DNA of 64,000 bases. It comes from a virus (taxonomy: Duplodnaviria > Caudoviricetes). Both the position numbers and the translations under genes were made by a program. Numbering within the stretch: position 1 is the first letter of the stretch; each line of letters starts with the position of its first letter. The notes beneath the pieces were generated by a model. It worked only from the letters and a program-made list of their open reading frames with translations. It did not search any database and was not told the DNA's origin. Where the stretch lies: positions 204 to 64,203 of the IMG/VR virus record IMGVR_UViG_3300033076_000117. One strand, 5' to 3'. Of this stretch, positions 2-17,892 are shown in pieces.

Positions 2-187
2 GCACTGCAAGGACGAGTGCCAACCAAAGTCAGAGGTACAATTCGTAAAGGTGACATGATGGTTAGTGCAGGTAATGGTTATGCTAGACCAAGTAACTCT
101 CCTACAATGGGAACTGTTATAGGTAAAGCATTAGAAAACTTTGATGGCATTGAGGGTGTTATTGAAGTAGCAGTTGGACGACTATAA
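2..187 (+). CDS. 3' end of tail fibre/spike protein with C-terminal intramolecular-chaperone-like domain (partial)
   Basis: Frame 2 reads ALQGRVPTKVRGTIRKGDMMVSAGNG...VIGKALENFDGIEGVIEVAVGRL*, the GRVPxKVxG / GDxxVS / VIGKALE pattern typical of phage fibre C-termini; stop TAA 185-187 overlaps the next ATG. Confidence 0.65.
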   Translation, partial: ALQGRVPTKVRGTIRKGDMMVSAGNGYARPSNSPTMGTVIGKALENFDGIEGVIEVAVGRL

Positions 188-1206
188 TGGCAATGATAAC
201 TATTTCAGTTCAAAGTCTTTTGAACGCCGCACTGTATGATAGTTATACAGTAGATGATTCTACTACAGTCGGTGATTTAATGGATCTAATACAAACTGAG
301 ACAGGGGTTAGTCCTGATTGGTACATTCTATCATATGATAATGTTTCATTAGATGTTCCAGTTGCACCGTTGTCAGATTATAACATTGTGGATGGCTCAG
401 TATTGCGTTCAGGTAATGTAATTGCAACATTAGAAACATTACAAGACAGACAACTTGCTAAATTAAACCTAGCGTCATTAGATAGAGCATACGTAGGAAA
501 TCCAAGCACTGAATACGATATAAATTTACTCCCATCACAATACATTGGTAACGACTCAGTTCCCAACGATCATCCAGATGGATTGATTGAGGGTCGTCCT
601 TGGATCCAAGTAAGTCCTGTTCCTGGACCATTTACTTTAAACTGGTACGGTAATGTATCCAACCCAGTCGCAACAACAGGAACATATTCTACTACACATG
701 GTGGAATAACATTAAATCCTGATTCATATATTGACGTTGGATCAGGCCTAAACGCAGGTCCATTTACAATTATGTTAGATGCCGCACCTGGATTGGGATG
801 GAATGGTAACAGTTGGGATTCTATTATAGGTAATGAGAATTACTTTGCCGGCACTGGCTTTCTTTGCTATATCAGTGGTGGAACAAGCATAAGTGCAGGA
901 CAGCCTAATCAGGCTGCTGAAGGTTCTATATCAGATATTACTGATAATGTCAGACGTTTGTATACCTTTACATACGATGGTACTACAATGTCAATTTATG
1001 AAAACGGTTCTCTTGTAGGTAGCAATGAACCATCATATACAACACCTGATAACAATTTCTACATTGGTAGTAGACACGACAACGGAGGGGGTGTTGGCCC
1101 ATATGATTCACAGGGCGGCACCTATTATGCATTAACTGTTACTTCTACTGCATTAAATGCATCACAAGTACTTGCTGAATATAATGCATGGGCGGCATCA
1201 ATATAA
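187..1206 (+). CDS. Virion-region protein: N-terminal ubiquitin-like domain + C-terminal LamG/concanavalin-like domain
   Basis: aa 3-76 align by eye with ubiquitin (TV..L...IQ..TGV.PD...L.Y....L.....LSDYNI...S.L); C-terminus has LamG-type motifs (LYTFTYDGTTMSIYENG, FYIG, ALNASQVLAEYNA). Confidence 0.65.
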   Translation: MAMITISVQSLLNAALYDSYTVDDSTTVGDLMDLIQTETGVSPDWYILSYDNVSLDVPVAPLSDYNIVDGSVLRSGNVIATLETLQDRQLAKLNLASLDRAYVGNPSTEYDINLLPSQYIGNDSVPNDHPDGLIEGRPWIQVSPVPGPFTLNWYGNVSNPVATTGTYSTTHGGITLNPDSYIDVGSGLNAGPFTIMLDAAPGLGWNGNSWDSIIGNENYFAGTGFLCYISGGTSISAGQPNQAAEGSISDITDNVRRLYTFTYDGTTMSIYENGSLVGSNEPSYTTPDNNFYIGSRHDNGGGVGPYDSQGGTYYALTVTSTALNASQVLAEYNAWAASI

Positions 1207-2257: not shown

Positions 2258-2938
2258 ATGATAAAATATAGACACCCTGATACATTAGGACATCTCAAAG
2301 AAGACTGGATTGAAACGTATCGCAGTTTCAGTAACAACAGTTATTACGATCCCAACTACATTCATTTCAGCGACTTAGAAGTTATCAACGATGACAGAGT
2401 TCAGCCCAAAAACTGTGTGCCCATTCATCAACATTGTGATATGGAAATCTTAGGATACATCATCGACGGTCCTTGCTACCACAATGATAACTTACACAAT
2501 TACGGTGAAGTACCTAGCGGATGCGTACAACGTATGAGTAGTGGAACTGGTATTTGGCACACTGAAGGCAATCTATCAGACAAGCCTATTCGTTATCTAC
2601 AGATTTGGCTACGACCCAACAAACATAACTTTCCACCGCAATATGATGTAATGCAGTTTACAAGAGAAGATAAACTAGATAAGTTCTGTCCTATTGCTAG
2701 TAATACAGGCCCTATTCATATCAACAGCGATGCTAAAGTATTTGCTGGGATTTTTACAAAGAATCATGTTGTACATTTAAACACTTCACGTAGATACTAT
2801 GTGTATATAGTTTCAGGATCAGCTACGATCAACGGAGTAGATAGTCCTACACTAGGTGGTTTTGCAATAGAAAACGAAACCACATTGGAAATATCTAATC
2901 CCACTGACTCTGAGATACTCCTTTTCGATCTCCGTTGA
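2258..2938 (+). CDS. Pirin-family cupin (YhhW/quercetinase-like)
   Basis: Pirin motifs H.H.DMEI, GCVQRMSSGTGIWHTE.N, LQIW. Confidence 0.85.
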   Translation: MIKYRHPDTLGHLKEDWIETYRSFSNNSYYDPNYIHFSDLEVINDDRVQPKNCVPIHQHCDMEILGYIIDGPCYHNDNLHNYGEVPSGCVQRMSSGTGIWHTEGNLSDKPIRYLQIWLRPNKHNFPPQYDVMQFTREDKLDKFCPIASNTGPIHINSDAKVFAGIFTKNHVVHLNTSRRYYVYIVSGSATINGVDSPTLGGFAIENETTLEISNPTDSEILLFDLR

Positions 2939-3026: not shown

Positions 3027-4409
3027 ATGGGACGCCCTTTAAAAATCGCAAAGGCTCAAGCAGTCTTAACAATTACAGATACAACAAACGCAACATCTGC
3101 GGTTACTGTATCACAGAATTTAAATACGTTAGTCATTCTACGTGGTATGCAATTTGTTGTTGCATCTGATGTAGGTGGACTTTCAGCCAACACAGTATAC
3201 TGGGTACTAGAAGTTTTAGATGATAACAATTTTACAGTTTCTGCAACATCACCTGATGCAAATAGAACAAGCACACCAGTAACATTGTCAGATACAACAA
3301 GTCAATCTGTGTTAGCATCTGTCAACGTTGTTGATGCATGGTTCAACAATCCAGTAGGTGGCCCAGGATTCCCTACAACTAACGCTAATACATATGGTGT
3401 AGTCGGTGGAAATACAGCAATCGTTGGTCCACAAGTACTATGTGAAGTTGCTTTCAATGTGCCTCAAACAGGTCGTGTATTTGCTGATACAGGTAGCAAC
3501 ATTGTCGCTGGTTATGGTACTGATTTTGCTAACTTAGTAGTTGGTACAAACATATACGCTCTATGGGGTGATGGTACTGGTACACCTATGTTATTAGGTA
3601 CAACAACCTCTACAGCAGGTAATCATACTGTTGCAGTTGCAAACACACAAAACACAGGTAACATCATTGGTACATCAGGTAATGCATTGACACTAGTTGA
3701 AGGTGCCCCAGTTACATTCAGTGCTAACTTAGGTGGTCTAATAACAGGTACTACATATTGGGTATTGAACACTGCTAACGCAACAGCATTTACAGTGTCA
3801 TTAACTCCAGGTGGCGCAGAAGTTGACTTATCTGATGCTACTGGAACACCAACAGCAAGCCAACAACAAGTTGTATTGACTGCGGTTTCAGCAAACAATG
3901 CTACAGGTGTTGATGGTACAGGTGACACTTATACATCTGCTCTACTAGAACAAGGTTATATTGTTCGTCAAAAGGGCAAGACAAAGTATTTGGTACAAGG
4001 TGTAACGTCTGGTATTCTTGGTCCAGTATACACTGCTAACGTTGCGAACGCGGCATTAGAGCCAAATACAATGAACATCATTGCTACATATGCTGACTCA
4101 AGCACTGCTTATGTTGCTAGCTTAAATGACTATCAATCTGAAGTATTCCCTGACCAAGTGGCTGCTGAAGATTTAGTTGTTGGAACAACATATACAATTT
4201 ACAGTACAGGTGACACTAACTGGGCAGAAGTTGGTTCAGCAAGCAACATGACAGGTGTTTCATTCGTTGCAAATGCTTCAGGCTCTGGTACAGGTACTGC
4301 TATTTTAGCAAATGCAAATCCTGATATCATCTCTACGTTCAACACTGCTTATGCGGCTAATACGTATGATGGTCAACCTAACCCAATCGTAACAATCAAC
4401 AACGCATAA
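3027..4409 (+). CDS. Putative virion structural protein (paralogue of 1310..2203)
   Basis: Late promoter, SD AAGGAG; T/G/A/N-rich beta modules; shared IVRQKG motif. Confidence 0.6.
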   Translation: MGRPLKIAKAQAVLTITDTTNATSAVTVSQNLNTLVILRGMQFVVASDVGGLSANTVYWVLEVLDDNNFTVSATSPDANRTSTPVTLSDTTSQSVLASVNVVDAWFNNPVGGPGFPTTNANTYGVVGGNTAIVGPQVLCEVAFNVPQTGRVFADTGSNIVAGYGTDFANLVVGTNIYALWGDGTGTPMLLGTTTSTAGNHTVAVANTQNTGNIIGTSGNALTLVEGAPVTFSANLGGLITGTTYWVLNTANATAFTVSLTPGGAEVDLSDATGTPTASQQQVVLTAVSANNATGVDGTGDTYTSALLEQGYIVRQKGKTKYLVQGVTSGILGPVYTANVANAALEPNTMNIIATYADSSTAYVASLNDYQSEVFPDQVAAEDLVVGTTYTIYSTGDTNWAEVGSASNMTGVSFVANASGSGTGTAILANANPDIISTFNTAYAANTYDGQPNPIVTINNA

Positions 4410-4410
4410 T

Positions 4411-4725
4411 ATGACTACGAAAGCTATTAGAATGCCGACTAAAAAGACAGAAACTGAAGTGGCTGTTCTTCAAGTGCAGGTAGAAAATATCACTAATGAT
4501 ATTAGCGAAATCAAAGCTGATATCAAAGATGTAAACGCCTGCATAGTTAAAAACAATGAAGATACGCACAACTTTTTAAAAGAAATGAAAGAAGCCAGTG
4601 CTAGTGCTCACAAAGCAATGTCCGACAAAATCACCGCGTTAGAAAAATGGCGATGGATGATGATGGGAGCAGGTGTAGTTATAGGCTCACTTGGATTCGA
4701 AACATTGGGCAAGTTGCTCAAGTAA
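4411..4725 (+). CDS. Coiled-coil protein with C-terminal transmembrane helix (holin/XhlA-like?)
   Basis: Heptad pattern aa 15-78, then WRWMMMGAGVVIGSLGF hydrophobic segment. Confidence 0.45.
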   Translation: MTTKAIRMPTKKTETEVAVLQVQVENITNDISEIKADIKDVNACIVKNNEDTHNFLKEMKEASASAHKAMSDKITALEKWRWMMMGAGVVIGSLGFETLGKLLK

Positions 4726-4728
4726 CTA

Positions 4729-4752
4729 AAAAGGACTCTTACGAGTCCTTTT
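4729..4752. terminator. Bidirectional terminator between convergent genes
   Basis: AAAAGGACTC-TTAC-GAGTCCTTTT, with A and T tracts on the two sides. Confidence 0.8.
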
Positions 4753-5152
4753 CTGTTAGTGCTTTTAGTTTTTCTTGTACAACGTCAAAGTTCACTGTAT
4801 TGAATAATCCAGGATGTAATGGTTTAGGATATTGATGATCCCCTACCCAAGCATATCCACAGTGTTCGTAGTTCAATTTAGGTATGAATTCATTATCGAC
4901 TTCACAAAAGAATGTATGATACGTGAATGAGTGATTCACGAACTTCTGAATAGGAACTAGTTTTGCTTTCTTAGGGAAGTATCCGATTTCTTCCTCGCAT
5001 TCACGTTGAATGCCTTCAATCAATGTTTCATCACCCTCAATCTTGCCACCAGGAATCCCCCAGTTGCCTGGGTTCTTACTGTCTGTTCGTAGTAGATATA
5101 AGAAACGTTCTGTATTCTTTGCGTAAAAGAATACGCCTGCTGATTGACTCAT
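4739..5152 (-). CDS. Nudix hydrolase
   Basis: Nudix box GGKIEGDETLIEGIQRECEEEIG. Confidence 0.9.
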   Translation of the reverse strand: MSQSAGVFFYAKNTERFLYLLRTDSKNPGNWGIPGGKIEGDETLIEGIQRECEEEIGYFPKKAKLVPIQKFVNHSFTYHTFFCEVDNEFIPKLNYEHCGYAWVGDHQYPKPLHPGLFNTVNFDVVQEKLKALTEKDS

Positions 5153-5170: not shown

Positions 5171-6544
5171 TTAGATAACGATAGAATAATCTCCCTGGTC
5201 GTACCAGCCCTCATAACTCTTCATCCACACACCATCAGGTGTATATCGATACTGAATGTTTGTGGTCAAGTTAGTAACGTATTCAACTGTTGTAGCTGTT
5301 TCACTATCAAATGAGACAAACCACTCACCTGAATCACCATCATACTCAACGATATCATTTGCACTAGCTACTAATGGGCCCCATGCAGTTGTAGTATCAC
5401 CATCATGCCCCACATTATCAACTAATATATAACGAACTCCTGGAACTGGGCCAGGTAATCCTGCGTTAGGTCCAGAAGTCAATGGGTTTACAACACTATT
5501 GACAGGTGCTAATGTATTTTGTGGCAATGTATCGGTGTCGATGTTATAGATTAGTAATCTATCATCTGTTGGATCGGGAACGATAGTACCAACAATGTCA
5601 GTGTTCATATATGGATTCTGTAACCAAATTTGACTGATGCCAGGACGCAACGTGCCATAGACGTTCAATAACGATGACCAATACAGGTTAGTATCCGGTG
5701 GGTTTGGATAGTTCAAGTCTAAGTTACTTTCGTAGAATGCTTCATCTGCGGGTAGTAACTGTAGTCTATTACCAATCAACAATACTTTGTATCCATAAGG
5801 TGTAATCTTTTGACGAGTACCTAATAGCAAGTCATCATCTTGCATGTCTTGTAATGCTTGACCTTTGTAGATACTTGCAATGACCTTTTCGATAACGCCC
5901 ATCTTCTTTAGTTTAGCGGCTGCGCTGATCCAAATAGGCATATAGAACTTCCATGACATAACATCGATAGGGTTACCAGTACCTTGCGGAATAGTTCTGC
6001 TACTAAAAGTCAATCCATCTTGATAAACAACACTCAATGATGTCCAATCAACAAAGTTGTCAGTAGACTGAATTTCTAATGACGGGTTGAATAGTGTACC
6101 AAGTTGTTCAATCAATTCTAGTTTTTGATTGTAGTTAGTAGTCCAAAAGTCAACGTTGATTCGTAATGTGTATGGAACAGGCATGATACGTTCAACTGTA
6201 AATGCTTGACCCTGAACAGTTTCATAGTTGCCAGTGTCACTATTGAAAGCACGTTGACGAACGTTGATACTTTCAACATACGTAGGATCTTGTGTTCTAC
6301 GTTGGTCGTATTCTAACCCACTGATGTAATACGTAATCAATGGTGCGCTAGGTGTATTACTTGCACTGTTGTTGGCAATGATAGTAGCAGCCTGGCGAGA
6401 ACTATCACCATACATGATAGGTACACGCACAAGAATGTCATTACCGTTAGGGTCTTTGCCCTTAGTGACTTGCCAGTTACTAAAGATTTTTGCAAATTGA
6501 ATTAGAAATCTGCGTATCTGATTGTCGTAGAAAAATTGTGCCAT
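5171..6544 (-). CDS. Tail completion/terminator protein (T4 gp15-like)
   Basis: N-terminus FFYDNQIRRFLIQFAKIFSN and VPIMYG, PVPY, EQL..LFNP motifs resemble gp15-like proteins; structural context. Confidence 0.7.
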   Translation of the reverse strand: MAQFFYDNQIRRFLIQFAKIFSNWQVTKGKDPNGNDILVRVPIMYGDSSRQAATIIANNSASNTPSAPLITYYISGLEYDQRRTQDPTYVESINVRQRAFNSDTGNYETVQGQAFTVERIMPVPYTLRINVDFWTTNYNQKLELIEQLGTLFNPSLEIQSTDNFVDWTSLSVVYQDGLTFSSRTIPQGTGNPIDVMSWKFYMPIWISAAAKLKKMGVIEKVIASIYKGQALQDMQDDDLLLGTRQKITPYGYKVLLIGNRLQLLPADEAFYESNLDLNYPNPPDTNLYWSSLLNVYGTLRPGISQIWLQNPYMNTDIVGTIVPDPTDDRLLIYNIDTDTLPQNTLAPVNSVVNPLTSGPNAGLPGPVPGVRYILVDNVGHDGDTTTAWGPLVASANDIVEYDGDSGEWFVSFDSETATTVEYVTNLTTNIQYRYTPDGVWMKSYEGWYDQGDYSIVI

Positions 6545-10439: not shown

Positions 10440-11237
10440 ATGACAATAAGCAACTTAGCAAGTCCTCTATCTACACCGTCAGGTTTGACACTTGACGAAA
10501 TGAAGCAAGCATTGTTTCAGAACATTCGTTATCGTTTGGGTGACGGTATCATTGACTTAGAAGTCGATGCAGAACACTTTGAAGCCGCATACAATTATGC
10601 TATCAAAGTTTACCGTCAACGTGCCCAAAACGCAACAAGCGAATCATATACCTTGATGACTGTTATCAAGGACGTTGACACATACACTTTACCTGCTGAG
10701 TTTATCAACGTTCGTAGTGTTTTTAGACGTACAGTTGGTCTAGAAACAGGTCCAAGCTCAACAAGTTTCGATCCGTTCTCAAGTGCGATTCTAAACACAT
10801 ATCTATTGAACTATAACTGGGCGGGTGGTATGGCAACATACGACTTCTACGCAGGCTATGTTGAACTAGCCGCACGTATGTTCGGTGGTTATGTCATTTA
10901 TACATTTGACCCTGTAACTAAGACACTAAGAATTGTTCGTGACCCTAAAGGTACAGGTGAACGTGTATTGATCTGGGCAGACGTTCAACGTCCTGAAACT
11001 GTATTATTACAAGATCCTGGTGCAGGTGTATGGATTGGTGATTACATATTGGCAAACTTAAAAGTTATCATTGGTGAAGCACGTGAAAAGTTCGGTACTA
11101 TTGCTGGTCCAGGTGGTGGTACAAGTCTAAACGGTACAGCAATGAAAGCTGAGGGCAAAGCCGCAATGGAACAATTGATTGACGAACTCAAGCGTTATGT
11201 TGATTATTCACAGCCACTAACTTGGGTACAAGGCTAA
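10440..11237 (+). CDS. Neck protein (T4 gp13-like head-tail adaptor)
   Basis: IRYRLG..I..LE and G.GG..LNG motifs; late promoter; structural context. Confidence 0.7.
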   Translation: MTISNLASPLSTPSGLTLDEMKQALFQNIRYRLGDGIIDLEVDAEHFEAAYNYAIKVYRQRAQNATSESYTLMTVIKDVDTYTLPAEFINVRSVFRRTVGLETGPSSTSFDPFSSAILNTYLLNYNWAGGMATYDFYAGYVELAARMFGGYVIYTFDPVTKTLRIVRDPKGTGERVLIWADVQRPETVLLQDPGAGVWIGDYILANLKVIIGEAREKFGTIAGPGGGTSLNGTAMKAEGKAAMEQLIDELKRYVDYSQPLTWVQG

Positions 11238-12390: not shown

Positions 12391-15300
12391 ATGGCATTAA
12401 CATCACCAGGCGTAGAAGTTACAATCATTGATGAAAGTCAGTATCTTCCAGCCCCAACAAACTCAGTTCCTCTAGTCGTATTAGCTACTGCTCAAAACAA
12501 AGCTAACGCTACTGGAACAGGCGTTGCCGCCGCTACAACGGCTGCAAACGCAGGTAAACTATATCAGGTAACAAGTCAGCGTGATTTGGTAAACTTGTAT
12601 GGTAAGCCGTTCTTCTATTCAACAACAAACGGTACACCTATTCAGGGCTATGAACTGAACGAGTATGGTCTATTGGCTGCTTACTCATTATTGGGTGTAA
12701 CAAATCGTTGTTATGTTCTACGTGCTGATATCGACTTAGCTAGCTTAGTCGGTCAAACTGGTCGTCCAGTTGGTGCACCAGCAGATGGTACTTATTGGTT
12801 GGATACAACTACAAGTACATGGGGTATCTATGAATTCAACAGTTCTACTGGTGACTTCACACAACAAACCCCTATCGTTATTACTGATACGTCTTTAATG
12901 GACAATGGTCTACCTGTACAAAGTATTGGTAGTATCGGTGATTATGCAGTGTATGCGTTGGATATAAACACTCCTCCATTCTCATCACCACGTACATACT
13001 ATCACAAGACTACAACTAATCAATGGACAATTTTAGGATCTTCAGCATGGAGAAGTCACGTTCCAACTATTATTGGAAGTAACTCCCCAACATCATTGAA
13101 CCAAGGTGATACACTAGATATCTCATTGTCAGGTGCTGATCCTTTCACAATTACTGTCCCACTATCACCTAACAACACCGTAACAGGTCTTGCTGATGCG
13201 ATTAATAATTTAGGTTTTGGTTCTATATTTGCCGCAAACGTTGATGGTAGACTTAATATCTACTCTAACCAATTTTGGGTAACAGGTTCTACTACTACAA
13301 ATATTACTATTACTAGTTCTACTGGTACTGTTGTAGAAGATTTGGGTATAACTCAGAATGTTCGTTACAATCAGCCCGTAATACAATATGGAACATATGC
13401 TCAAATGCCATATTGGACTGCATCACAAGCTAACCCTAGACCTACAGGTTCTGTTTGGTTAAAAGTTGGTTCATCTGGTGGTGGTTTGGCTCCAGTAGTA
13501 TCTAAGTATAGTGCGGCTACTGCTTCTTGGATTAAACAACCAGTAGGCTCATATCAATCTGATTGGGCGGCAACAGCACAACTTGACCCAACTGGTGGAC
13601 AAGCTGTTCCTGCTGGAACTATTTACGGTCAATATACATTCAATGGAAGCACAGCTAATAGTCCATATTACCTATGGAAGAGAAGTGCAACTGGTCCTAC
13701 AGTCGTTACGGGTACAGCAACATTCGAAAGTGCAACTGCTCCTGTGTTCAACTCAGGTCCATATAACATGACCATAAATGTTAGCTTGCCAGGTAGTCCT
13801 CATGTATCTTCTCCATATTATTTTATAATTGATGATGGAGCAAGTGTTACTGATTTCATAACTGCGCTATATGGTTCAGGTGTTCCATATGTTAATGCAT
13901 CCGCTGTTGCAGGAACTAATGCTATTCAGCTTACTCACACTGAAGGTGGAGAGATTCTACTAACAGATATCGACCCAAACACTGGTATAAGTTCAGGCTT
14001 GTTAGCAGAAATTGGCATTGTACCTACTGAAACTACAGGTGTAAAGTATGGTCCCGTAGTCAGTACATCATTCTATGATGTACCAGTTTCTTCTACTACA
14101 TCTGCGAGTGGTGCTAACGCAACATTCAATGTTTCAACTCCTGGATACTACAACTTGTTATTGATAAGTGATGGTGGTTCTTTCTATGAAGTTGGTGATC
14201 AAGTTACTCTTTCAGGTGCTGATATGGGTGGACAAGGTCAAGACCTAGTATTAGGTGTAACTAGTGTTGACGGTGGTGGTGCTATTACAGGTGCAACATG
14301 GGTGTCAGGTACAGTAAATACAGCGTACATGGCACAATTAAGTAATTGGCAAGATTTTTCATATACTGCAAATGAAGGAGCTCCTGCTGTTGCACCAGCA
14401 AATAACACAAATTGGTTCTACTCAGTCGTTGATGAAGTAGATATCATGGTTCAAAAGGGTGGTGCATGGATTGGATATCAAAACACTGCGTATGACTCTA
14501 CTGGTCACCCAGCATTTACTGGTGTTAATAATACTGATCCAAATGGTCCAATCATTTCTGCAAGTAAGCCTACTACACAATCTGATGGTACTCCATTAGA
14601 ATATGGTGATTTGTGGATCGATACAAGCGACCTTGAAATGTATCCAGTAATCAGTCGTTGGCAATCAGTTTCTAACGTAGATCAGTGGGTTCTAATCGAT
14701 AACACAGATCAAACATCTACTAATGGTGTTACATTCTTAGATGCACGTTGGGCAACAAATGGCACAACAAGTCCAATTGATGATCCAATACCAACAATTC
14801 AATCATTGTTGACAAGTAATTATCTAGACCTAGATGCACCAAGCCCAAGTCTATATCCACAAGGTATGTTGTTGTTTAACACACGCCGTAGCGGTTACAA
14901 TGTGAAGCAATTCCGTACAAACTATTTCAACAATACTAGTTTCCCTGGTCAATCATTACCAGAGCAAACAAGTGCATGGGTTTCTGTAAGTGGCAATCAA
15001 ACAAATGGTGCACCTTACATGGGTCGTAAGGCACAACGTGCTATGGTTGTTGAATCTCTACGTTCTGTAATTGACACTAACTTGTCAATTCGTGATGAAG
15101 ATAACTACTTCAACTTGATTGCTACACCTAACTATCCTGAATTACAACCTAACATGGTTGTATTGAATGCAGATCGTGGTGAAACAGCGTTTATTATTGG
15201 TGATACACCATTAGGTCTACCTGATAGTGCTACTGATATTCAAGCATGGGCTAACAACGATGCAGGTGCATCAAGCACAGGTGAAGAAGGTCTAGTTACA

Positions 15301-15969
15301 CGTAATACATACTTGGGTCTATTCTATCCAAGTGGTATCGCTAACGACTTAGACGGTAATGAAGTTGTCGTTCCAGCATCACATATGATGCTACGCACAT
15401 TCTTACGTAATGACACAATCGCTTATCCTTGGTTAGCGGCTGCAGGTACACGCCGTGGTAACATTGACAATGCATTGAACATTGGTTATTTGGATCGCAC
15501 AACTGGCGAGTTCCAAGCAATCAAGACACGTATTGGTATCCGCGATGTATTGTATATCAATCAAATCAACCCATTGGTATTCTTCACTGGTGTTGGCTTA
15601 TTGAACTACGGCAACAAGACAAGTTACAACTCTAGCTCTGCATTAGACAGAACTAACGTTGCTCGTCTAGTCAACTATGTCCGTCGTCAATTGACATTGG
15701 CTGCTCGTCCGTTCGTATTCGAACCTAACGATGCATTGACTCGTAATCAAATCGCTGGTGTTGTTCAAACATTGATGGTTGACTTGGTAGCGAAACGCGG
15801 TATTTACGACTACTTGGTAGTTTGTGATGAAAGCAATAACACTCCTGCTCGTATCGACAGAAACGAACTATGGGTTAACGTTGCTATCGAGCCTGTCAAG
15901 GCTGCTGAATTCATCTACATACCGGTTCGTGTTCTAAACACAGGTGAAATCGCAACTCTAAGCAAGTAA
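12391..15969 (+). CDS. gp18: Contractile tail sheath protein
   Basis: LTSPGVEVTIIDES N-terminus; C-terminal VPASHMM, INP, SALDR.NV.RL, FVFEPND..TR, VCDESNNT, IEPVKAAEFIYI. Confidence 0.95.
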   Translation: MALTSPGVEVTIIDESQYLPAPTNSVPLVVLATAQNKANATGTGVAAATTAANAGKLYQVTSQRDLVNLYGKPFFYSTTNGTPIQGYELNEYGLLAAYSLLGVTNRCYVLRADIDLASLVGQTGRPVGAPADGTYWLDTTTSTWGIYEFNSSTGDFTQQTPIVITDTSLMDNGLPVQSIGSIGDYAVYALDINTPPFSSPRTYYHKTTTNQWTILGSSAWRSHVPTIIGSNSPTSLNQGDTLDISLSGADPFTITVPLSPNNTVTGLADAINNLGFGSIFAANVDGRLNIYSNQFWVTGSTTTNITITSSTGTVVEDLGITQNVRYNQPVIQYGTYAQMPYWTASQANPRPTGSVWLKVGSSGGGLAPVVSKYSAATASWIKQPVGSYQSDWAATAQLDPTGGQAVPAGTIYGQYTFNGSTANSPYYLWKRSATGPTVVTGTATFESATAPVFNSGPYNMTINVSLPGSPHVSSPYYFIIDDGASVTDFITALYGSGVPYVNASAVAGTNAIQLTHTEGGEILLTDIDPNTGISSGLLAEIGIVPTETTGVKYGPVVSTSFYDVPVSSTTSASGANATFNVSTPGYYNLLLISDGGSFYEVGDQVTLSGADMGGQGQDLVLGVTSVDGGGAITGATWVSGTVNTAYMAQLSNWQDFSYTANEGAPAVAPANNTNWFYSVVDEVDIMVQKGGAWIGYQNTAYDSTGHPAFTGVNNTDPNGPIISASKPTTQSDGTPLEYGDLWIDTSDLEMYPVISRWQSVSNVDQWVLIDNTDQTSTNGVTFLDARWATNGTTSPIDDPIPTIQSLLTSNYLDLDAPSPSLYPQGMLLFNTRRSGYNVKQFRTNYFNNTSFPGQSLPEQTSAWVSVSGNQTNGAPYMGRKAQRAMVVESLRSVIDTNLSIRDEDNYFNLIATPNYPELQPNMVVLNADRGETAFIIGDTPLGLPDSATDIQAWANNDAGASSTGEEGLVTRNTYLGLFYPSGIANDLDGNEVVVPASHMMLRTFLRNDTIAYPWLAAAGTRRGNIDNALNIGYLDRTTGEFQAIKTRIGIRDVLYINQINPLVFFTGVGLLNYGNKTSYNSSSALDRTNVARLVNYVRRQLTLAARPFVFEPNDALTRNQIAGVVQTLMVDLVAKRGIYDYLVVCDESNNTPARIDRNELWVNVAIEPVKAAEFIYIPVRVLNTGEIATLSK

Positions 15970-16680: not shown

Positions 16681-17892
16681 GTGGCTGGATTTTTTCAGAA
16701 TTTACTTACCGACACCGTAAAAGGTTTCTTTGGTAATGAGTATGTAAGAGATTACACTCACGCATCAAAAACGTTTAGGACTAATGCGTATCAGTACAGT
16801 CCTAAACTAAAGTTTCTTTTCCATGTGTACTTTGAAATCAACCCCGCAGCCTATGCTGTGGGTTTGAGCAATAACGTTAACTTTGGACTTGCTGTAAAAA
16901 CAGTTCAACTTCCAAAATACACATTTGATACGCATGTCATGAATCAGTACAATCGTAAACGCATTGTACAAACAAAACTAAAATACGATCCAATCACAAT
17001 TACATTCCACGATGATAACGGTGGGGCAACAGGTAGCCCTACAGCAGGTGGTATTATTCGTAATATGTGGTACAACTATTACACTTATTATTACAAAGAT
17101 GCTACTAAGCCAGTTATCTCCCCTGTAAACAATCAGACAAATAATGGCAAAGGTAATACAGGCGGTGCATCATATAACACACGAAACATCTATGCAAAAG
17201 ATTTGACAGGTGACGTTGATTGGGGATACATTGGTGAAAGTTCTCAACAATCAGGAACTACTAGCCAAGCAAGCCAAGGCATCTCAAAGATTCCTTTCTT
17301 CAAGAACATTCAAATTTATGGTATGAACGAACACAACTTTGTTCAATACACACTTGTAAATCCAATTATTACTAGCTTTGAGCATGACACATACTCTTAT
17401 GCTGAAGGTAGTGGTACGATGGAAAACAGAATGACTATTGATTATGAAACAGTAGTCTATGCTGAAGGTGCTGGTCCAGCACAAAAAGTTCCAGGATTCG
17501 GAAATACTGCAAACTACGATACAACACAAAGTCCTATTGCACGTCCTGGCTCAAATAAAACTATTCTTGGTCAAGGTGGTCTTATCGATGCGGCAACAGG
17601 TGCATTGAACGACTTACCTAATAATCCTCTAGGTGCATTACGTACATTAGGTACTGCATACAATACTTTCAAGAACACTAATTTGAAACAACTTGCTGTG
17701 GGTGAAATAAAAGGTGCTGTAGCAGGTGCAGTAGCGCAACAGTTACCTGGTTCTGTTAGAAGTACATCATACTATCCTGGTTATAATCAATCACCGGCAG
17801 CAACAACTGCAGGTAATGCAGGAACTGGTATGGCTCAAGCCCCAGCTGTCAATAATCCAGGTGGGCCAACAACTGCAGGCAAACAAAACTAA
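16681..17892 (+). CDS. Tube-like baseplate/tail-tube initiator protein
   Basis: Tube-fold motifs (VKTVQLPKY.FDT, YDPITITFHDD, LVNPIITSF.HD, MTIDYE); GTG start. Confidence 0.55.
   Translation: MAGFFQNLLTDTVKGFFGNEYVRDYTHASKTFRTNAYQYSPKLKFLFHVYFEINPAAYAVGLSNNVNFGLAVKTVQLPKYTFDTHVMNQYNRKRIVQTKLKYDPITITFHDDNGGATGSPTAGGIIRNMWYNYYTYYYKDATKPVISPVNNQTNNGKGNTGGASYNTRNIYAKDLTGDVDWGYIGESSQQSGTTSQASQGISKIPFFKNIQIYGMNEHNFVQYTLVNPIITSFEHDTYSYAEGSGTMENRMTIDYETVVYAEGAGPAQKVPGFGNTANYDTTQSPIARPGSNKTILGQGGLIDAATGALNDLPNNPLGALRTLGTAYNTFKNTNLKQLAVGEIKGAVAGAVAQQLPGSVRSTSYYPGYNQSPAATTAGNAGTGMAQAPAVNNPGGPTTAGKQN

Follow-up and report, generated by a model that had tools for sequence, protein, structure and literature searches.

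The window analysed here, a stretch of 64,000 nucleotides from a tailed-phage record in IMG/VR (IMGVR_UViG_3300033076_000117), begins within a fibre gene, which is followed immediately by the open reading frame at 187-1206 on the plus strand (P0001, 339 aa; Table 1). The two genes share nucleotides: on direct reading of the sequence, the ATG of P0001 (187-189) overlaps the TAA of the fibre ORF (185-187). P0001 consists, in order, of a ubiquitin-like domain (Ubl), a helix/hairpin element, a flexible linker and a head of the LamG type. Based on the analyses below, we conclude that it is a protein of modular build, encoded in a structural operon of an uncultured T4-like jumbo myovirus.

A first-pass annotation, made from the sequence alone, had noted similarity to ubiquitin in a peptide that corresponds to aa 4-73 of P0001. 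The AF2 model of the whole protein has a pTM of just 0.59, and the domains were also analysed separately.

Table 1 Features at the start of the window and the evidence for each
Feature	Position	Strand	Basis
3' end of upstream fibre gene	2..187	+	C-terminal 61 aa in window; 129 aa on contig
TAATG stop/start overlap, fibre gene/Ubl gene (translational coupling)	185..189	+	Direct reading
Whole ORF P0001	187..1206	+	339 aa; Pfam, AF2, homologue searches
Ubiquitin-family beta-grasp domain, aa 1-77	187..417	+	Pfam PF00240, family profile, AF2 + Foldseek + VIA-align
Second module half, aa 78-140	418..606	+	AF2 pLDDT 87-98; conservation in 153 unique sequences
Flexible linker, module to head, aa 135-149	589..633	+	AF2 pLDDT <50 at aa 135-145
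Concanavalin-A-like (LamG) beta-sandwich head, aa 150-339	634..1203	+	Laminin_G_3 match; Foldseek
rep460, 460-aa Gly/Thr/Ala-rich repeat protein	3027..4409	+	Conserved downstream neighbour (synteny)
104-aa membrane protein	4411-4725		PHROG/Pfam assignments
NUDIX	4739-5152	-	PHROG/Pfam assignments
gp15-like sheath stabiliser	5171-6544	-	PHROG/Pfam assignments

The N-terminal domain belongs to the ubiquitin family

The proposal of a ubiquitin-like domain at the N-terminus of P0001 is borne out by Pfam, by a family profile and by structure prediction. With the Pfam ubiquitin model (PF00240, gathering cut-off 25.4 bits), the isolated residues 1-88 give a significant match over aa 20-73 (28.6 bits, E 1.2e-6). 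Residues 1-140 score above the cut-off (27.3 bits) and the whole protein slightly below it (25.0 bits), and a six-frame search of the contig again exceeds it (28 bits). The cut-off was reached by none of 14 control prokaryote genomes. Compared as a single sequence with mono-ubiquitin, P0001 is a weak match (E~0.5); the local alignment score amounts to 8.7 standard deviations over 1000 shuffles. A profile built from 67 family sequences matches mono-ubiquitin residues 1-67 with E~4e-11 (46 bits), and 41 of the 67 members match the Pfam ubiquitin family at E<=1e-3, the top score being 46.8 bits.

Identity between the window Ubl and ubiquitin is 35% across 51 columns, below the level of about 60% seen for proteins of the BfUbb type. 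Two other family members are nearer to ubiquitin and thereby link the family to ubiquitin proper: P0120, with 43% identity, and P0160, with 61% identity and E 3.8e-15 against mono-ubiquitin. P0160, known from one 839-bp contig at 1.5x coverage, aligns with P0001 across the entire module (36% identity, E 2e-17), and its closeness to ubiquitin points to eukaryote-type ubiquitin as the likely source of the family.

Structure prediction agrees. The AF2 model of aa 1-140 has a pLDDT of 95 and a pTM of 0.84, and within it the Ubl has strands at 3-9, 17-23, 46-50 and 72-77, a helix at 28-39 and a 3-10 helix at 62-65. This is the beta-beta-alpha-beta-beta-(3-10)-beta topology of a beta-grasp fold, which superposes on ubiquitin. 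Among PDB entries, Foldseek ranks ubiquitin and its variants first (rmsd 1.0-1.5 A, target TM 0.85-0.94, 26-31% identity), and VIA-align pairs the Ubl model with ubiquitin over 74 residues (Z 14.1, rmsd 1.2 A). Of the sequence features first pointed out, the match to ubiquitin at core positions stands; the exact LSDYNI string is present in P0001 but is not a feature of the family, in which the consensus reads TLASYGI. Thus, we conclude that aa 1-77 form a true ubiquitin-family domain descended from ubiquitin proper and not a generic beta-grasp, and that its sequence is nearest to eukaryotic ubiquitin, not to the Ubls of bacterial Bil/Bub systems.

An undescribed helix/hairpin element completes a module of about 140 residues

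The Ubl runs on into a further 63 residues that comprise a helix (85-103), a beta-hairpin (117-126) and a terminal PDGLxxGRPW motif, with GRPW at aa 136-139 (nt 592-603). In the model of aa 1-140 the two halves are predicted to pack as one compact unit. They are also similarly conserved, with mean top-residue frequencies of 61% for the Ubl and 66% for the second half. Across 153 unique sequences, the near-invariant residues are N77, Q89, K92, L93, R100, L115, L133, R137, P138 and W139, and the loop between the first two strands of the Ubl (VQSLLN) is about 95% conserved.

No known family matches aa 78-140. Taken from the model of aa 1-140, this half has no PDB match by Foldseek or VIA-align, its matches in BFVD are only to members of the same family, and the ESM Atlas holds nothing convincing (scores <0.8, TM <0.5).

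A database clustered at 90% identity contains 64 homologues of P0001, and about 250 representatives of 50% clusters match at E<=0.001, a number that includes forms lacking the Ubl and some eukaryotic polyubiquitin-like proteins. Uncultured tailed phages encode at least 150 distinct proteins that contain the ubiquitin-derived domain. In about 55 of 150 listed representatives the second half stands at the N-terminus without a Ubl. These Ubl-less variants sit at the same locus as the full module, which shows that some phages can do without the Ubl. Small proteins encoded upstream of them were checked as possible split-off Ubls and are not Ubls. The commonest form of the family is the bare module of 137-147 aa: of 63 unique loci, 32 code for nothing beyond it. 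The five larger related records that we examined have one copy of the module each.

Deposited genomes gave no relatives. Searches by tblastn of 50,697 phage genomes with the whole of P0001 and with the N-terminal module (to E<=1) returned no significant match, and no relative emerged from a pattern scan that covered 185,579 prokaryote species genomes. Synechococcus phage S-T4 has a 104-aa protein at the corresponding position, but it is unrelated to the module. We conclude that the module family is so far undescribed for tailed phages.

The module carries exchangeable heads

The first-pass annotation had also placed a LamG-like domain after a linker, in agreement with our results. Laminin_G_3 (PF13385) matches aa 213-328 at 27.9 bits, above its cut-off of 27.6, and the AF2 head is a jelly-roll beta-sandwich that Foldseek matches with probability 1.0 to lectin-like domains, pentraxin, CBM40 and CBM66 (E 1e-7 to 1e-6). 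The model thus suggests a sugar-binding type of domain, and the head is a candidate for glycan binding. In a sister member of the family (P0057) the LamG head is 36% identical to the C-terminal tip of S-PM2p176, a protein of 1058 aa annotated as a virion structural protein; the window's own head has no significant tblastn match in the 50,697 deposited phage genomes, S-PM2p176 included.

Across the family, the N-terminal module is conserved and the C-terminal Pfam families differ, with the locus constant within each lineage. The same module carries LamG, PA14/GLEYA, ILEI, Gly-rich (Gly_rich_2) or PKD plus LamG heads, or none. The LamG domain is therefore an optional addition, about half of the homologues being the bare 140-aa module, and the existence of this headless form shows that the core function is something other than displaying a head. 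Neither the optional nature of the LamG domain nor the descent from ubiquitin proper had been part of the first-pass annotation.

The module gene lies in structural operons of two lineages

As the first-pass annotation stated, a fibre gene lies directly upstream of P0001. Full-length homologues of its product, P0065 (867 aa) and P0066 (772 aa), are fibres with Ala/Gly/Asn-rich repeats (772-867 aa). Pfam matches are weak (Peptidase_G2 IMC, E 2.7e-4; Mtd_N, 0.038), and a sequence search of the PDB with the full-length fibre found nothing. The C-terminal domain of the fibre, which is probably a generic, cleaved domain resembling an intramolecular chaperone, is common to more than 4500 proteins, the best-listed matches having 75-94% identity. 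We considered this domain as a specific partner of the module and set it aside: such a role is unlikely for a domain shared by so many fibres and of so generic a chaperone-type appearance. One relative from lineage A, described below (G003, locus L023), lacks it.

Two arrangements were found. In lineage A, to which the window belongs, the order is fibre, module, rep460, transmembrane protein, NUDIX (minus strand) and gp15 (minus strand). Of 13 unique loci, 11 have a gap of -1 or 0 between the fibre stop and the module start, and the synteny of rep460 and the genes that follow is kept in three related loci (L002-L004) and in about 20 IMG/VR loci. In lineage B the order is sm87, module, p549 and large terminase; here gaps of -1 to 3 separate the module from either neighbour. 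The p549 protein matches phrog_1645 ('virion structural protein') and shares 37% identity with proteins of Synechococcus phages that are annotated as virion structural and are encoded beside gp13-gp15 and terminase genes. The neighbours thus differ between the lineages; in both, the module gene is tightly packed in operons of late structural genes.

A position directly 3' of a fibre gene, with translational coupling, is typical of fibre-assembly factors. The module could accordingly be an assembly chaperone or checkpoint protein that is absent from the mature virion, in the manner of lambda gpI or T4 gp38/Tfa: it would bind the nascent fibre or a neighbour, with the Ubl masking or licensing the docking helix before being released or removed. 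The small, headless 140-aa protein that is commonest in the family would suit such a factor, and there is a precedent in lambda, in which the N-terminal Ubl of gpI is cut by gpK as an assembly checkpoint (PMC12908700, PMC1779556). Four observations argue in the other direction. Neither the window nor the complete relatives yielded a JAB-type peptidase (PF14464), no Gly is conserved where the Ubl ends, and the lineage B gene is not beside a fibre gene. Moreover, lectin-like adhesin domains (PA14/GLEYA, LamG) are present in half of the family and would be hard to explain on a protein that is thrown away. We regard a chaperone role as unlikely.

The Ubl lacks the features of covalent conjugation

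The C-terminal Gly-Gly of ubiquitin is missing, as was noted at the outset. Residues 73-77 read LRSGN, and the window Ubl continues as ...VLRSGNVIATL into the helix. Only one of 153 family members has Gly-Gly, position 76 is not conserved among them, and no Gly is conserved at the end of the Ubl. The Ubl also has no Lys, and P0001 has a single one in 339 residues, whereas the median Lys content across the window is 6.4%. Lys is just as scarce in the window's other fibre-like ORFs, so the bias looks compositional. Searches for Prok-JAB (PF14464) and ThiF/E1 (PF00899) gave no match on the window's contig or in five related records, two of which are 100% complete by CheckV (~357-360 kb); these two families made up the search for conjugation enzymes. 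The Ubl therefore stands without a Gly-Gly tail, without conserved acceptor lysines and without an E1 or JAB found in the phage.

These results bear on the suggestion that the domain is a decoy for E1/E2/JAB enzymes. A counter-defence protein of this kind would block the E1, E2 or DUB of a host Bil/Bub-type system non-covalently, or pre-occupy the site of modification on the tail. Bil systems do conjugate a Ubl onto the central tail fibre of phages (10.1101/2023.09.04.556158; 10.1101/2023.09.26.559546). A protein with one Lys, and none in its Ubl, would itself be a poor substrate, and the conservation of VQSLLN points to a conserved interface. Without Gly-Gly, however, the Ubl could not engage an E1 as a substrate mimic, and the scarcity of Lys is shared with the fibre-like ORFs mentioned above. 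The existence of Ubl-less variants at the same locus and the absence of Prok-JAB and ThiF matches also leave the decoy unsupported. In addition, the Ubl is fused to a helix/hairpin and to lectin heads in late structural operons rather than encoded among early anti-defence genes, and it resembles eukaryotic ubiquitin, not the Bil/Bub proteins. We see only a very slim chance that the domain is a decoy or shield.

A proposed role as a docking module of the virion

The reading that we consider best, and to which we give an even chance of being right, is that the module is a non-covalent docking or adaptor element of the virion that displays a glycan-binding head. Through translational coupling to the fibre gene, the module would be made in step with its structural neighbours. 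It would then attach to the virion, with the fibre or a neck-proximal structure as the most likely site. The flexible linker that follows GRPW would carry the head, and LamG would face outward as an accessory adhesin for glycans of the host surface. The ubiquitin fold would serve as a rigid scaffold for protein-protein interaction, or as a cap for the helix/hairpin element, and not as a tag. The first-pass annotation had offered a structural beta-grasp adaptor as its other suggestion, which fits the compact 140-aa module (pTM 0.84), the coupled structural operons and the interchangeable lectin-like heads.

The Ubl might instead be the receptor-binding or host-binding element, with the module rather than the optional head contacting the host. 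BfUbb is likewise of the eukaryote type, lacks Gly-Gly and works through non-covalent binding (PMC3352274, PMC11467351). In the phage family, the VQSLLN loop at the surface hardly varies, and the bare module is the commonest form. A receptor binder would be expected to vary with the host, yet here the module is conserved and the heads are variable, and Ubl-less variants exist. We judge direct host binding by the Ubl to be very unlikely.

A bolder version of the docking model is that aquatic jumbo and T4-like phages acquired a ubiquitin gene of the eukaryote type and made of it a Lys-poor, non-conjugatable docking cap, which, in addition to being structural, might blunt Bil/Bub-type defences or exploit a ubiquitin-binding protein of the host surface. 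This is quite improbable in our estimation; if true, it would be the first use of ubiquitin mimicry by a phage at the virion.

Significance and comparison with known systems

Ubiquitin proper is regarded as a eukaryotic hallmark. Judged from sequence comparison, a gene transfer from eukaryotes to phages is likely, and P0160, at 61% identity, has the look of an intermediate. If the role proposed here is right, the family would be a second, independent case, besides lambda gpI, of the ubiquitin fold in the building of phage particles. A compact, portable module that ends in GRPW and carries interchangeable lectin-like heads is relevant to the evolution of host range and possibly to display engineering. 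The value of the result lies in a well-defined, testable family, with a function that we infer, rather than in a proven mechanism.

The T2/S16-type gp38 adhesins, T5 pb10 and T4 Hoc are modular receptor-binding or decoration proteins, in which the attachment domain is conserved and the distal heads are exchanged. The P0001 family shares with such modular phage adhesins a conserved module, a flexible linker, interchangeable domains of the carbohydrate-binding type and a recombination-prone locus beside fibre or structural genes. It differs in its ubiquitin fold and undescribed helix/hairpin element and in being often headless. The BilABCD and Bub systems likewise involve ubiquitin-like beta-grasp proteins and phage tail fibres. 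Their Ubls are host proteins that have a terminal Gly, undergo activation by E1/E2 and are trimmed by a DUB, whereas none of this was seen for P0001 (PF00899 and PF14464 searched).

The gpI protein of lambda and T1 (TAPI; Pfam Lambda_tail_I) has an N-terminal Ubl that is cleaved by the adjacent gpK, which combines JAB and NlpC/P60 (PMC1779556, PMC12908700). Like P0001, gpI is a structural or assembly protein of the tail region with a beta-grasp Ubl at its N-terminus, and its gene is part of the tail gene cluster. Its Ubl is ThiS/MoaD-like, with a conserved terminal Gly followed by a Gly-rich linker, whereas that of P0001 belongs to PF00240, lacks a terminal Gly and leads straight into a helix. 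A Pfam scan of P0001 gave no match to Lambda_tail_I or ThiS at E<=1, the best match being ubiquitin proper. The JAB peptidase gpK is adjacent to gpI, whereas no JAB (PF14464) was found with P0001. Finally, gpI comes from siphoviruses, and the P0001 family from uncultured aquatic myoviruses.

BfUbb of Bacteroides fragilis is 63% identical to human ubiquitin and acts by non-covalent binding (PMC3352274, PMC6194340, PMC11467351). A SusCD outer-membrane transporter recognises it, and its partner in the periplasm is a PPIase. BfUbb and the P0001 family are both homologues of ubiquitin proper outside eukaryotes, and both lack a functional Gly-Gly terminus. As made by the bacterium, BfUbb is an antibacterial protein of 76 aa that is free and secreted, whereas in the phage proteins the domain is fused to a helix/hairpin and, in many members, also to a lectin head. 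The window copy is also far more diverged (35% over 51 columns, compared with 63% for BfUbb). The Ubl of lambda gpI and BfUbb were already known; what is new is a ubiquitin-derived domain, joined to an undescribed helix/hairpin element, in the structural operons of phages.

The N-terminal domain of P0001 is a ubiquitin-family domain

The first-pass annotation had read the N-terminus of the 339-aa protein P0001 as ubiquitin-like. This observation is confirmed, and its support exceeds what a reading of the sequence could show. The Pfam ubiquitin model matches aa 20-73 with 28.6 bits for the isolated domain and 25.0 bits for the whole protein, above and below the cut-off of 25.4 bits, respectively; this cut-off was reached in 0 of 14 control prokaryote genomes. 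P0001 alone matches mono-ubiquitin weakly (E~0.5), its low E-values against polyubiquitin come from summed repeats, and the exact LSDYNI of its ubiquitin-like domain (Ubl) is no general feature among relatives. A profile built from 67 relatives matches residues 1-67 of mono-ubiquitin with E~4e-11, and 41 of the 67 match Pfam ubiquitin one by one. In local alignment to ubiquitin, P0001 scores 8.7 sd above shuffles. In an AlphaFold2 model of aa 1-140 (pLDDT 95, pTM 0.84), Foldseek superposes aa 1-77 on ubiquitin at 1.0-1.5 Å (identity 26-31%), and VIA-align of the modelled domain gives a Z of 14.1, which bears out the proposed fold.

Two relatives show that the Ubl of P0001 descends from ubiquitin proper and not from a ThiS/MoaD-type beta-grasp protein. 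P0160, known from a single low-coverage contig of 839 bp, is 61% identical to ubiquitin (39/64 columns) and alone matches mono-ubiquitin with E 3.8e-15. It retains the VQSLL loop peculiar to the family as well as the helix/hairpin element downstream, its alignment with P0001 spans the whole module, and its gene has neighbours in the order usual for the family. The second relative, P0120, is 43% identical to ubiquitin. Given how little ubiquitin varies among eukaryotes, the domain was most likely captured from one of them or from one of their viruses.

The Ubl has lost conjugation features

The Ubl of P0001 is not a conjugation tag. Past strand 5 it reads LRSGN and the chain goes on into a helix; of 153 unique family sequences, one has Gly-Gly in this region, in agreement with the original remark that this terminus is missing. 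The only ubiquitin lysine position conserved in the family is K27 (HMMER alignment), where the window has Met, and the window's Ubl contains zero lysines. Prok-JAB and ThiF/E1 genes were not found in the window's contig or in five related records (two rated 100% complete, 357-360 kb).

That P0001 shields against Ubl-conjugation systems of the host, or acts as a decoy for them (decoy being one of the two roles initially proposed), is very improbable. Its extreme poverty in lysine (1 in 339 aa, the invariant K92, versus a window median of 6.4%) lends the decoy a little weight, but this depletion is not peculiar to it: other fibre-like ORFs are about as poor, including a 1159-aa ORF (0.6% K, 0.2% R) and the 460-aa repeat protein rep460 (1.1% K). 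The absence of Gly-Gly, and of Prok-JAB/E1 in the records searched, also speaks against a decoy, while the other proposed role, a structural beta-grasp adaptor, fits the compact module, swappable heads and structural operon described below.

The conserved unit is a 140-aa module with optional heads

The Ubl is only part of the real unit, a module of 140 aa. Residues 78-140 of P0001 (helix 85-103, hairpin 117-126, motif PDGLxxGRPW) are conserved to the same degree as the Ubl, with Q89, K92, L93, R100, L115, L133, R137, P138 and W139 conserved at 99-100% in the 153 sequences, and the two parts form a single compact body in the model. In structure and family searches, aa 78-140 had no counterpart among known folds or families.

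When 1.84 billion representatives were searched exhaustively, about 250 proteins matched at E<=0.001. Among the 150 matches listed, about 70 (our own count) carry the whole module, about 55 are Ubl-less with the helix/hairpin element at the very start, and some 20 are eukaryotic polyubiquitin-like and match the Ubl only. In rare architectures the complete module forms the C-terminal end of a beta-helix-like protein (P0073) or lies internally, ahead of LamG (P0176). P0186 begins with the MAANGISTL opening of the element, followed by ~190 unrelated residues and then the element's remainder, so that a domain is inserted at the exact point where the Ubl normally ends. Each of five larger related records checked has one module copy. 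Searches of 50,697 deposited phage genomes and of 185,579 prokaryote species genomes did not find the module, and its sole occurrences in BFVD are four uncharacterised entries labelled 'uncultured Caudovirales phage'.

After GRPW, P0001 continues through a low-confidence linker (aa 135-145) into a ConA-like sandwich, matching the linker and LamG-like domain first described. LamG is one among several optional heads: relatives carry PA14+GLEYA, ILEI, a Gly-rich domain or PKD+LamG on the same module, and of 63 unique loci, drawn from IMG/VR and other assemblies, 32 encode just the bare module (137-147 aa) as a complete ORF. The head of P0057, a sister member, shares 36% identity with the C-terminal tip of S-PM2p176, which has 1058 aa and is annotated as a virion structural protein of a cultured cyanophage; the window's own LamG head has no match of this kind in deposited phage genomes.

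Genomic setting

The window is nearly the whole of a 64,203-bp IMG/VR viral contig (completeness estimate 18%) and encodes a T4-like contractile-tail structural module. Its gp15-like protein is 32-34% identical to counterparts in the jumbo phages Atu_ph07, Phosso and PA5oct.

Features of the window and their positions
Feature	Position	Strand	Remark
Upstream fibre, 3' end	2-187		contig L001:1-390
P0001, 339 aa	187-1206	+	Ubl at its start
Gly/Thr-rich repeat protein, 297 aa	1310-2203		between Ubl gene and rep460
Pirin-like bicupin	2258-2938		between Ubl gene and rep460; Pirin E 1.4e-20, Pirin_C_2 E 5.7e-14
rep460	3027-4409	+	460-aa repeat protein
gp15-like sheath stabiliser	5171-6544	-	
gp13-like neck protein	10440-11237		
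Tail sheath	12391-15969		
Tail tube	16681-17892		
Fibre-like ORF, 1159 aa	22186-25665		
Lysine-rich ORF, 679 aa	48809-50848		

Module loci show two recurrent gene orders. Lineage A, that of the window, runs fibre, module, 460-aa repeat protein, small membrane protein, NUDIX (minus strand) and gp15 (minus strand). The module start overlaps or abuts the fibre stop at 11 of 13 unique loci, and the P0001 ATG shares one base with the preceding TAA (TAATG), in keeping with the fibre gene first noted directly upstream. Lineage B runs methyltransferase, two small conserved proteins, module, p549 and large terminase, with gaps of -1 to 3 bases on either side of the module. p549 has a match in a PHROG made up of virion structural proteins, and it shares 37% identity with proteins of Synechococcus phages annotated as virion structural; in these phages its counterpart lies between the terminase subunits, beside gp13-gp15. 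Judged by the known T4 gene order, both settings probably match the part of the T4 map that runs from neck/whisker to terminase.

Several neighbouring genes were also recorded. The 297-aa repeat protein and the bicupin are both absent from the syntenic relatives L002-L004, so 1310-2938 looks like an auxiliary gene inserted into the fibre region. At its C-terminus (~130-170 aa) the upstream fibre has a domain shared by >4500 environmental phage fibres that differ greatly in length (75-94% identity among the best listed). The domain's match to Peptidase_G2 (IMC) is weak, and it is probably a chaperone/trimerisation cassette of fibres, highly conserved and undescribed. Over its last ~95 residues, the 679-aa ORF shares 51% identity with the end of a hypothetical protein (499 aa) that Synechococcus phage S-T4 encodes between its small and large terminase genes. 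The small lineage-B proteins, always 5' of the module (L006:8541-8819, L011:307-570, L008:3127-3426), matched no family. One (~92 aa) has a DMKRLAGI motif and a C-terminal PEWFKLWF, and the other (~87-110 aa) begins MRATEFIRGLLDLID; DMxRLAGI recurs in the two of them and in a neighbour of 119 aa in L009. A lineage-B phage, represented by L008 (a 107.6-kb IMG/VR contig) and a 120.7-kb relative, carries the family member that is most abundant (52-member cluster). It also encodes ribosomal protein S21, GroES, GroEL, Hsp70, Hsp20 and ClpS, as well as a fatty-acid desaturase and an isocitrate-lyase/PEP-mutase-like enzyme. In the phage of P0120, the module lies immediately 5' of a giant fibre-like gene: a 2474-aa protein starts 4 bases on, followed by a DUF285-repeat protein (L095:848-8272).

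Proposed function and comparison with known systems

The Ubl is ubiquitin-derived and non-conjugatable, the module is compact and conserved, its heads are swappable on a flexible linker, and the operon is tightly coupled with structural genes. We give an even chance to a reading in which the module would dock non-covalently onto a virion component, the Ubl would give the helix/hairpin a cap or a rigid scaffold for interaction, and the LamG head would be displayed as an accessory adhesin for glycans. A role in assembly as chaperone or checkpoint, on the model of lambda gpI, is unlikely, given heads of adhesin type and no peptidase in the contig and five related records searched for Prok-JAB.

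Our literature search found no description of a phage family carrying the module. What stands out is a domain of ubiquitin-proper ancestry in tailed phages and a module that is sharply delimited and open to testing. In lambda and T1, gpI/TAPI carries a ThiS/MoaD-like Ubl with a Gly end that is removed by the JAB peptidase gpK (PMC1779556, PMC12908700). The P0001 Ubl is likewise N-terminal, and gpI is encoded in the tail operon, but P0001 has none of these defining features, neither the ThiS/MoaD-like Ubl nor the Gly end nor JAB cleavage. Bil systems put host Ubls onto phage tail fibres (10.1101/2023.09.04.556158, 10.1101/2023.09.26.559546) and their Ubls share with P0001 the fold alone. The known case of a eukaryote-type ubiquitin among prokaryotes is BfUbb of Bacteroides fragilis (PMC3352274, PMC6194340, PMC11467351). 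Gly-Gly is absent in both and BfUbb works through binding; that the P0001 Ubl itself binds the host as BfUbb does we consider very improbable. Unlike P0001, BfUbb is a free secreted protein.
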